The notes under the pieces are model-generated. The model was not told the DNA's origin. It did no database searches and was given only the letters and a program-made list of their open reading frames with translations. From a virus (taxonomy: Duplodnaviria > Heunggongvirae > Uroviricota > Caudoviricetes), in IMG/VR virus record IMGVR_UViG_3300045921_000484, positions 153,258-195,295 of that record: 42,038 nucleotides of DNA, one strand, 5' to 3'. Made by a program: the position numbers and the translations under genes. Positions 18,280 to 20,526 of the stretch are shown here, one piece after another; positions within the stretch are counted from its first letter, which is position 1; each line of letters begins with the position of its first letter.

Positions 18280-18834
18280 ATGAAATATTTAAGAAAATTT
18301 AATGAGAATTATTCTGACTTGGAAAAGGAAGAACAAGAAAAGGCTAAAAAAACTGCTATTTCTAACTCACCTTATTTACAGAAAAAAGAAGCTGAGAAAA
18401 GAAAAAATAGATTAGAAAAATCATATAAGGAAGATCCTGATGGTATGTATCCAAGAGATACCGATGACAAAATAGATGATATTACATCAAGAGGTTGGCA
18501 AAATGGAATGGGCGAACCACCTTGGTTAAGTGAGTCTAATGTAGAATTTGACGTTGAATTTGCTATAACTAAAATAAAAGATAAATTTAGCGAGGATGAG
18601 GTAAACATCTTATTTGATAACGAGTTACTTGAATGGGTCGATCCAGATTGGTCAGACGAGTATGATTCCGAATATGATTGGTATGTTGAACATAACAATG
18701 GAGAAGCCCAAGATGTTGTTATTGATCAACTAATTGATTGGTATATGAAAGAATATGGTGAAATATCAGTTGATGAACAAATTGAGTTAAAGGATCGAAT
18801 TAAAAAAGAATATGATGTTTTAAACTATTATTAA
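18280..18834 (+). CDS. Acidic hypothetical protein with CTS-like leader (MKYLRKFNEN)
   Basis: The in-frame ATG at 18280 is preferred over the track GTG at 18211 because it opens with the shared leader motif. Confidence 0.75.
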   Translation: MKYLRKFNENYSDLEKEEQEKAKKTAISNSPYLQKKEAEKRKNRLEKSYKEDPDGMYPRDTDDKIDDITSRGWQNGMGEPPWLSESNVEFDVEFAITKIKDKFSEDEVNILFDNELLEWVDPDWSDEYDSEYDWYVEHNNGEAQDVVIDQLIDWYMKEYGEISVDEQIELKDRIKKEYDVLNYY

Positions 18835-18869
18835 TCTTTTTCTTATAAAAAGAAAAAAAGATTAATTAG

Positions 18870-19328
18870 ATGACCCAAAGTGCAGATGACTTTAAGAAAC
18901 AAGCTTTAGATAAATGGGTACACATACTTAATTCGATGGGTGTTACTGGTAGTAAATCTGATTGGATGTCTCAATATGTTAATGAAGATTTCCTAAAACA
19001 ACCACAACAAGAATTTCCTTCAATTTTACCAATGTCTATGTCTATTGCAATGGATTTAGTTTCAGTTCAACCTATGAAAGGATCGGGTGGTACCTCAAAA
19101 GAAGAAATGGAAAGAATTAAAGCAGAAATAAAGGCAGAAAATCGTGATAGTAAAATAGACTCTATTATCGAAGATACTGACTATACGGAGAAGAAAATAG
19201 AAGAACATCCTGATTATAAAGGTCCTGAAATGTTATTCTATTTTGATTATAGATACGAAAATTCTACATCATCTTCTATTGATAATGAGGATAATTCAAT
19301 ACTTGGTAAATTAGGTAGAGGATTATGA
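18870..19328 (+). CDS. Truncated major-capsid-protein (gp23-like) N-terminal fragment with inserted helical module
   Basis: LDKWVHIL...FPSILPMSMSIAMDLVSVQPMKGSGG, then a ~45-aa insert, then PEMLFYFDYRY. This matches the gp23-family KW...IA.D..VQPM..PTG..FY pattern as recalled; only 152 aa. Confidence 0.6.
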   Translation: MTQSADDFKKQALDKWVHILNSMGVTGSKSDWMSQYVNEDFLKQPQQEFPSILPMSMSIAMDLVSVQPMKGSGGTSKEEMERIKAEIKAENRDSKIDSIIEDTDYTEKKIEEHPDYKGPEMLFYFDYRYENSTSSSIDNEDNSILGKLGRGL

Positions 19329-19417: not shown

Positions 19418-19505
19418 ATTTTTTTGGCATAAATAAAAATATTGATACAATAAATAAATACTATAAAAATATGTTTGGGGAATCATTTGGTATAATATAT
19501 ACCAA

Positions 19506-19841
19506 ATGATTAATGTTTATTTAATTTGTGCTGAAATAGATAATAGGAAATTATATAAGATAGGATATACTAGGAGATCAATTGATGATAGAATAAGAGA
19601 GTTTAAAACTGGCAATGCCTCATCTTTTTATGTTATAGATACTTTTCAATCAAAGTGGGGAACAAAAATTGAAGCGAGATTAAAAAAGATATTTAAACAA
19701 AAAAAGATTAATGGTGAGTGGTTTGATTTAAATGATGATGATATAAAGGAGTTTAGAAAATTATCACAATCAATAAATGATATTTTAGAGTTAATATCAT
19801 CAACTAATACTTATGTTTTAGATAGAGGTGGTAGATTTTAA
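19506..19841 (+). CDS. T5orf172/GIY-YIG-like nuclease domain protein
   Basis: VYLI...YKIGYT...RIREFKTGN...GEWF signature; TAATATATA at 19493-19501. Confidence 0.8.
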   Translation: MINVYLICAEIDNRKLYKIGYTRRSIDDRIREFKTGNASSFYVIDTFQSKWGTKIEARLKKIFKQKKINGEWFDLNDDDIKEFRKLSQSINDILELISSTNTYVLDRGGRF

Positions 19842-19874: not shown

Positions 19875-20033
19875 GTGAATGAAATTAGTAATAATCAAGT
19901 AAGAATGAAATTTATTATACCTATTGGTAAAAATACTAATAAAAAAGAGGCGGAAATAATCGCTGAATTAATGGATAAGTATAAAGAAGATAATAAAGAT
20001 GGTAAGATAGAAAAAATTAATAAAAATATATGA
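19875..20033 (+). CDS. Mini-ORF resembling a portal (gp20-like) internal segment; absent from the track
   Basis: GTG at 19875 or ATG at 19905: (VNEISNNQVR)MKFIIPIGKNTNKKEAEIIAELMDKYKEDNKDGKIEKINKNI*. The stop overlaps the next ATG (ATGA at 20030). Confidence 0.55.
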   Translation: MNEISNNQVRMKFIIPIGKNTNKKEAEIIAELMDKYKEDNKDGKIEKINKNI

Positions 20034-20310: not shown

Positions 20311-20526
20311 ATGAACTTTGGTAATTATTTTTTAGACTTGAAAAAGATATTAGATATAGAATCAAAAAGTGAAAGAAAAATTATTCACAACTATTATACA
20401 GAAATGATGATTGCTTTCCAAGAAGGAAGAGAAGGGATGGGTAAGTCTATAATGAATACACTAATTAACGCTGGATATTTGATTGATAATAGAGATGATA
20501 AAATTGATAAGATATTAGATGAGTAA
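20311..20526 (+). CDS. Small protein ending in NRDDKIDKILDE
   Basis: 71-aa ORF with the C-terminal R-x-x-K-I-x-x-I-L motif. Confidence 0.7.
   Translation: MNFGNYFLDLKKILDIESKSERKIIHNYYTEMMIAFQEGREGMGKSIMNTLINAGYLIDNRDDKIDKILDE

Follow-up and report, generated by a model that had tools for sequence, protein, structure and literature searches.

In phage T4 the N-terminal part of gp23, the major capsid protein, comprises a propeptide (residues 1-65), the N-arm and N-fist (66-105), the Gol peptide (94-122) and the first strands of the P domain (to ~131). Gol binds EF-Tu, as described in the Lit literature, and both capsid proteins and the T4 Gol peptide trigger abortive-infection systems. The 65 N-terminal residues of gp23 are removed by the prohead protease, while residues 66-105, disordered in the unexpanded head starting from the inward-pointing L106, probably touch the scaffolding core made of gp22; it is only on expansion that they turn into the N-arm and N-fist (PMC9546572). 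Three capsid-length mutations, A66D, A94V and G97S, fall within this region, and linker 1 of the I domain begins at residue 132 (PMC9546572). Proteins fused to the gp23 N-terminus are also strongly directed to GroEL (PMC3012670, with reference to Snyder and Tarkowski 2005).

The window analysed here, a stretch of 42,038 nucleotides, forms the final 42 kb of a 195-kb viral contig (29% G+C, estimated 34% complete), and the recognisable genes around the locus of interest are those of a phage, namely an SbcC-like nuclease subunit, virion proteins and a DNA methyltransferase. A small gene in this window (Table 1) had been interpreted, from the letters and open reading frames alone, as a stand-alone N-terminal fragment of the major capsid protein carrying an insertion. 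The open reading frame and every string quoted in that sequence-only reading are present as described in the 152-aa translation (LDKWVHIL at 13-20, WMSQY at 32-36, FPSILPMSMSIAMDLVSVQPMKGSGG at 49-74, ENRDSKIDSII at 90-100 and PEMLFYFDYRY at 119-129), and the identical protein is encoded on three contigs.

Table 1. Coordinates of the small gene and its parts, of two features upstream of it and of a second capsid-derived gene. Positions refer to the window unless marked as genome positions; residues are those of the 152-aa protein.
Feature	Residues	Position (strand)	Basis or remark
Whole gene, 152 aa	1-152	18870..19328 (+), stop codon included	ORF list and sequence
Propeptide (delta-domain)-like module	1-39	18870..18986 (+)	Alignment A3, hhalign, PDB profile, AF2
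End of N-arm and first strand of putative hairpin, FPSILPMSMSIAMDLVSVQPMK	49-70	19014..19079 (+)	Equivalent of T4 gp23 Gol region
Insert of 47-48 aa in the turn of the putative hairpin	71-117	19080..19220 (+)	No capsid protein has it
Long alpha-helix with tag	77-101	19098..19172 (+)	AF2, pLDDT about 98
NRDSKIDSII, internal copy of tag	91-100	19140..19169 (+)	Family conservation, C-terminal tag matrix
Second strand of putative hairpin, GPEMLFYFDYRY	118-129	19221..19256 (+)	Equals capsid GPKIDLLYIDFQY, T4 PTGQVFALRAVY
Ser/Asp/Glu-rich tail with short basic end KLGRGL	130-152	19257..19325 (+)	Alignment A1; predicted disordered
Upstream neighbour, 207 aa		18211..18834 (+)	C-terminal EWVDxDW...HNNGEAQDVVID domain, syntenic in closer relatives
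AT-rich hairpin, between upstream stop and small-gene start		18832..18864 (+)	RNA fold -8.9 kcal/mol, z = -2.6
Truncated gp23 paralogue, 253 aa, C-terminal half		genome 1140-1901 (+) (G000:C1 = L011:1140-1901)	Capsid alignment

The small protein is a free-standing paralogue of the gp23-type capsid protein encoded by the same phage, corresponding to the first ~125 residues of that protein. A single true gp23-family capsid gene is present in this phage (563 aa, 102.5 bits against PF07068), located at genome 4622-6313 (-) beside an acidic repeat protein; the small gene lies at 172 kb, about 150 kb away, and the corresponding distance in the complete genome LR756502 is 88 kb. The similarity to gp23 proposed from the sequence is not seen directly, as PF07068 (Gp23) gave no match to the 152-aa protein even at E <= 10, with the gathering score not reached, and scans of Pfam and PHROG returned chance-level matches only and no PHROG family. 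It is recovered, however, by a profile of the small-protein family, which matches the phage's own capsid N-terminus with E = 6e-20 over profile positions 5-78 and again, collinearly, at positions 125-147, skipping 79-124. The capsid protein of LR756502 shows the same two-block pattern (E = 3e-20), and BLASTP of the small protein against its own capsid protein gives E = 8e-8 at 28% identity. At the level of sequence, a capsid resemblance far beyond chance is confirmed, visible through profiles only.

Aligned jointly, nine small proteins and eight N-termini of capsid proteins (A3) share three blocks in the same order: the propeptide, then the N-arm together with the Gol-equivalent strand, then the partner of that strand. 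The alignment has 15 columns invariant across both protein types (M1, K15, W16, W32, L53, P54, M57, L63, V64, V66, P68, L122, Y124, D126 and Y129). In A3 the insert falls exactly between capsid VKPSP and GPK, and the Gly/Ala-rich linker of the capsid proteins (about 40 aa) is missing from the small proteins. The position claimed for the inserted module, exactly between the VQPM and LFY elements, is thus borne out by the skipped profile positions, by the gap in A3 and by a predicted helix (see below), and the Gol-equivalent segment indeed belongs to the homologous region. Homology also covers the capsid propeptide (aa 1-39), which the earlier description did not mention. When the whole T4 genome was compared with the joint profile the sole match was gp23, residues ~2-122 (E = 8.8e-4), and no similarity was seen to the core proteins gp67, gp68 and gp22. 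The propeptide part aligns by hhalign with gp23 residues 4-40 (78% probability, E = 1.8e-5), and a PDB profile search matches the propeptide-like module to gp23 residues 4-59 and family positions 49-80 to gp23 residues 89-121, the Gol region, a match to T4 that is weak alone and is bridged by the phage's own capsid protein. A slight hint of processing by the prohead protease is that E39 aligns with capsid SINE|N in close relatives, an alignment that is lost in the wide family. Read against the anatomy of T4 gp23, what has been copied is the propeptide, the arm that faces the scaffold and the first pair of strands, stopping just short of the E-loop-equivalent linker. The strand pair probably forms a hairpin, judging from the alignment and general knowledge of the fold.

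The gene belongs to a large family. A word-based search found 38 close clusters. An exhaustive profile search, clustered at 50%, yielded 601 representatives; E <= 1e-10 was reached by 245, and almost all of the 601 measure between 60 and 190 aa. Named relatives are confined to LR756502 (642 kb) and LR745206 (635 kb), which rank among the largest 'megaphages' and come from a freshwater lake and the subsurface (PMC9723777). The residues most invariant within the family are V64, R92, K95 and I96 (alignment A1), in which the C-terminus of relatives is often a Lys/Arg run. First-strand residues are kept in 142-144 of the 149 top representatives, and conservation of the tag within the insert (see below) equals that of the hairpin in the wide family, its R being present in 135/140 and its K in 127/139; hairpin and tag occur together in 125/149. 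The propeptide-like module is missing in 55/149, and in a minority of short members (P0034-P0038) the tag lies at the very C-terminus. With 601 representatives in which both hairpin residues and insert are highly conserved, the suggestion that the gene is a repurposed domain, and not a product of decay, holds. Between the same two phages the small protein retains 48% identity and the capsid protein 77%; the small protein diverges faster, as accessory and scaffold-like proteins do.

The helix in the insert is a copy of a genome-wide C-terminal tag, which the sequence-only reading had not recognised. The tag follows the pattern R-[DEN]-x-K-[IL]-x-x-[ILV]-[ILVM], with the core R-D-x-K-I-x-x-I-L, and in its C-terminal form reads R-[DEN]-x-K-[IL]-x-x-[ILV]-L with 0-7 further residues behind it. 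On this 195-kb contig a motif scan places it at the extreme C-terminus of at least 6 other, unrelated ORFs; nearby, a 71-aa ORF (20311-20526, +) ends in the tag (...NRDDKIDKILDE) and a 52-aa ORF (19875-20033, +) in a degenerate form of it (...NKDGKIEKINKNI). For a census the complete genome of LR756502 was stitched together, yielding 89 motif matches against 1.25 in shuffled proteins, with carriers distributed genome-wide and 69 of the 89 matches <= 8 residues from the C-terminus (0.15 expected). After masking of the motif, the 88 carriers of LR756502 fall into 86 BLAST clusters. No Pfam family is found in 66 of the 69 C-terminal carriers, the remaining three having weak or DUF matches, and the ten largest carriers have no informative PHROG. 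About 125 unrelated ORFans of LR756502 end in the tag. Codon usage in the tag tracks that of the genome and the DNA 3' of carrier stop codons is unrelated, indicating selection at the level of the peptide. On these two grounds we reject the idea, also considered, that the tag is a portable 3' cassette or a repeat in the DNA.

Since the search pattern had been derived from the small protein itself, and the argument could be circular, reference-free tests were made. De novo, gapped triplets such as R..KL, RD.K and R..K...I show an 11-17-fold excess within the 14 C-terminal residues of ORFs. A weight matrix trained only on 125 C-terminal instances from LR756502 ranks the helix of the small protein first among 61,549 internal windows of this genome, with a score of 21.9 compared with a median of 22.0 for true tags and a background of -30 +/- 9.5, and ranks the helix of the orthologue fifth among 209,437. 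Tags accompany the small-protein family on four further contigs. The copy in the small protein is not terminal, ending 52 residues before the C-terminus.

About nine of the 69 C-terminal carriers in LR756502 start with a hydrophobic, transmembrane-like segment (e.g. L021:4788-5159, L026:15182-15571 and L039:1434-1823), so the tag is not confined to soluble proteins, and these membrane-like carriers together with the genome-wide spread make it probable that the tag is not simply a capsid-packaging signal. Two further observations concern its distribution. Near the N-terminus of the 144-aa carrier P0307 (LR756502:503876-504310 (-) = L046:3879-4310) stands …PIKKWRPIIE…, similar to KKWxPxLE, which is the first motif conserved in the capsid propeptide; the remainder of P0307 is unrelated. 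A 555-aa DNA helicase (phrog_2488; G000:C1:86875-88542 (-) in this phage, LR756502:256301-257968 (+)) contains a conserved internal tag-like segment, …RDLKLSKLL… / …RDLKISKIL….

A second capsid fragment carries the tag. The 253-aa ORF in Table 1 matches residues 439-532 of the capsid protein at E = 2e-9, and it also shows a sub-threshold alignment, E = 1.4e-3, with positions 180-307 of Pfam Gp23. It has the tag at its end (...KNRDSKINNILNEEK) and lies 3 kb from the capsid gene, beside head genes; its 261-aa orthologue (LR756502:234417-235202) is 6 kb from the capsid gene and has the C-terminus ...QRDIKIDNVLDEED. The 152-aa and 253-aa proteins are two capsid-derived members of the very few carriers with recognisable ancestry, the other carrier in this genome with a recognisable domain having a weak P-loop/thymidine-kinase-like match. 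The two fragments might conceivably be halves of one split vertex protein, an idea that the data do not support: joined, they would still miss residues ~126-315 of the capsid protein, and the tag occurs well beyond these two proteins.

For the small protein AF2 with a 149-sequence alignment, which replaced a 30-sequence model (pLDDT 60), gave a mean pLDDT of 77 and three helices plus extended segments, and in its 152 aa no complete HK97-type fold, with P and A domains and spine helix, is found. The propeptide-like part is predicted as helices 5-22 and 28-42 and the tag as a helix (77-101) with the confidence given in Table 1, while the capsid-like core 44-74 (pLDDT 53-65) and LFYFDYRY are extended and unpaired. 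The earlier description of a small soluble protein is doubtful as regards a folded entity, because the capsid-like segments are predicted to be extended and unpaired when alone. In the model the unpaired segments would fit a protein that becomes ordered only on a partner, like the T4 gp23 N-terminus. A Foldseek search of the AF2 model against the PDB gave no match and the ESM Atlas held no usable look-alike of the small protein; the predicted complex of capsid and small protein scored 0.00, run without controls, and speaks neither for nor against binding.

The small gene sits among small ORFs upstream of the SbcC-like gene, and a syntenic 104-kb contig has the order large ORFs, 109-aa gene, small gene, small ORFs, SbcC-like gene; distant members have other, variable neighbourhoods. 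It is not within the head-gene module, and head genes adjoin it in none of five contexts. Its upstream neighbour, a candidate functional partner, matches no Pfam or PHROG family, and the pairing of neighbour and small gene recurs in L006 (5629-5958) and LR756502 (L015:1106-1438). The conserved domain of this neighbour is acidic and aromatic-rich (EWVDxDW...DWYxxHNNGEAQDVVID), and here it is preceded by an MKYLRKFNE-type N-terminal leader. The AT-rich hairpin between the two genes has a counterpart of different sequence at the same place in LR756502 (L015:1447-1481, z = -4.3) and may act as a terminator, in processing or in translation.

Directly downstream lies a 111-aa T5orf172/MUG113 (GIY-YIG-like) gene, 19506-19841 (+), whose start codon is overlapped by a perfect 14-bp stem-loop (19481-19511) containing TAATATATA. 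Because of this gene we considered that the small gene might be part of a split or intron-containing capsid gene, an idea rejected because none of five contexts has the remainder of a capsid gene nearby and because an intact capsid gene is present as well. A box, TTAGGAT-N-(T)ATATATAGAT, is common to both capsid genes about 35 nt upstream of the start (before 6313 (-) in G000 and before 227452 (+) in LR756502) and is a possible late promoter; it was not found upstream of the small gene. A sigma-70 promoter scan was at chance level (41 found, 40.7 expected), and inspection of upstream regions gave no clear timing class. Just upstream of the LR756502 capsid gene, a 699-aa open frame contains a match to Peptidase_S77, the T4 gp21 prohead protease (225326-225685 (+), 22.7 bits, cut-off 27), which hints at a protease that is either joined to a scaffold-like region or precedes one. 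The DNA runs listed by a sequencing-run search are hot-spring and microbial-mat metagenomes, which may be the source sample, and no RNA run was listed.

We tentatively propose, at somewhat less than an even chance, that the small protein is an adaptor or modulator of head assembly that docks like the capsid N-terminus while displaying the tag. The proposal follows from the T4 gp23 counterpart, which lies inside the unexpanded shell, probably on the scaffolding core, affects capsid length and becomes ordered only against neighbouring subunits. The capsid-derived segments would dock where the capsid N-terminus docks, on the scaffold core and/or neighbouring capsid subunits, folding on binding, and the rigid helix would expose the tag to whatever reads it. 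As an outcome, the tag system would be coupled to the procapsid, or the small protein would compete with capsid subunits for the same sites. We favour a role in head assembly because capsid-type contact residues are kept identical, the copied region is scaffold-facing and size-determining, two of the few carriers with recognisable ancestry are capsid-derived, and the protein looks scaffold-like, folding on binding. The gene's location outside the head module argues against it, as do the presence of the tag on apparently membrane-anchored ORFans, the missing ATATATAGAT box and the lack of similarity to gp67, gp68 and gp22. Nor can scaffold contact through the propeptide module be the core function, since more than a third of the family's top representatives (the 55/149 above) lack it.

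It is possible, though unlikely, that the protein is instead an ordinary client of the tag whose capsid ancestry is incidental, an exapted fold-on-binding peptide with a function unrelated to heads that the tag delivers to a common reader for localisation, turnover or oligomerisation. The short members P0034-P0038, which end in the tag like ordinary carriers, agree with this, as do the non-structural gene context and the tag's occurrence on about 125 unrelated ORFans, some apparently membrane-anchored. Against it, the capsid-type residues P54, D62, L63, V64, V66, P68, L122, Y124, D126 and Y129 rank among the best-conserved columns in hundreds of divergent sequences and are still identical to those of the capsid protein, a sign that these contacts have been kept.

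We regard as improbable a mimic whose Gol-equivalent hairpin occupies capsid-recognising host sensors of the Lit/EF-Tu or CapRel type ahead of the real capsid protein or in its place, the insert blocking activation or rerouting the complex via the tag. The strand pair equivalent to Gol is precisely the conserved core of the family, abortive-infection systems are known to be triggered by capsid proteins and by the T4 Gol peptide, and the gene evolves fast among small ORFs far from the head genes. But a free Gol-like peptide is expected to trigger a Lit-type system, not to block it, and epitope mimicry alone leaves the strict conservation of tag helix and strand pairing unexplained.

Little weight is given to two further explanations. 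In one, the small protein would be a module that recruits or titrates the host folding or translation machinery, the tag helix linking it to the reader or to tagged proteins. Retention of both the propeptide and the Gol-equivalent parts would suit this, as would binding of Gol to EF-Tu and the model-based prediction that the small protein does not fold alone; against it, the propeptide part is missing in more than a third of the family. The idea arises from the targeting of fusion proteins to GroEL by the gp23 N-terminus (PMC3012670). In the other, the small protein would be a physical link between procapsid and tag system through which the assembling head would recruit or exclude dozens to more than a hundred tagged ORFans: the hairpin would enter or cap the capsid/scaffold lattice and the helix would pair with tags or share their reader, a form of cargo sorting whose key component is a duplicated capsid segment.

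That the gene is a non-functional remnant of the capsid gene or an assembly artefact, including a mis-assembled capsid piece, can be given practically no credence, the failure of Pfam Gp23 to recognise the protein notwithstanding, because intact orthologues occur in hundreds of clusters and many independent assemblies with length and architecture conserved, and because the protein is only 28% identical to a capsid protein encoded about 150 kb away and is found unchanged on three contigs.

The small protein is the meeting point of two problems, how very large heads are built and sized and what purpose the lineage-specific C-terminal tags of huge-phage ORFans serve. With a recognisable capsid element and a rigid, confidently predicted copy of the tag it is a natural bait for the tag reader, and as a capsid-derived carrier it offers a first handle on tag function; co-expression with the capsid protein can test it without phage culture. 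Duplicated full-length capsid paralogues, such as T4 gp24, are familiar. In the literature we found no description of stand-alone capsid N-terminal paralogues, nor of the R-D-x-K-I-x-x-I-L tag, and a widespread family copying only the N-terminal, assembly-controlling part of the capsid protein appears to be new on that basis.

Set beside known systems, the small protein is closest to the N-terminal region of T4 gp23, with which it shares collinear similarity over residues ~2-122, its match to its own capsid protein being much stronger. It differs from gp23 in being a separate 152-aa gene product without A, P or I domains, without the Gly/Ala linker and with a 47-48-aa helix insert, encoded far from the head genes. 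The T4 prohead core proteins gp67 and gp68 are similarly small, and a role inside a T4-type prohead is possible for the small protein too, but there is no sequence similarity and the small gene is not between portal and protease genes. The tag recalls the T4 capsid targeting sequence, encapsulin cargo-loading peptides, clamp-binding tails and the helix with which P22-type scaffolding proteins bind coat protein at their C-terminus, in that a single short terminal peptide is common to many otherwise unrelated proteins, with selection acting on the protein. It differs from these terminal address peptides in sequence and in that some carriers look membrane-anchored, and in the small protein it is internal, embedded in a long helix. 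Finally, by an analogy of principle, the small protein may be compared with the delta-domain scaffolds of HK97 and T5 and with SaPI CpmB, being short, elongated, helical and charged and akin to a head-protein segment that governs assembly (PMC9546572). Scaffold mimics of the SaPI CpmB type copy part of an assembly protein and redirect capsid assembly; in the present case the source is the capsid protein itself, and the copy belongs to the phage and not to a satellite.
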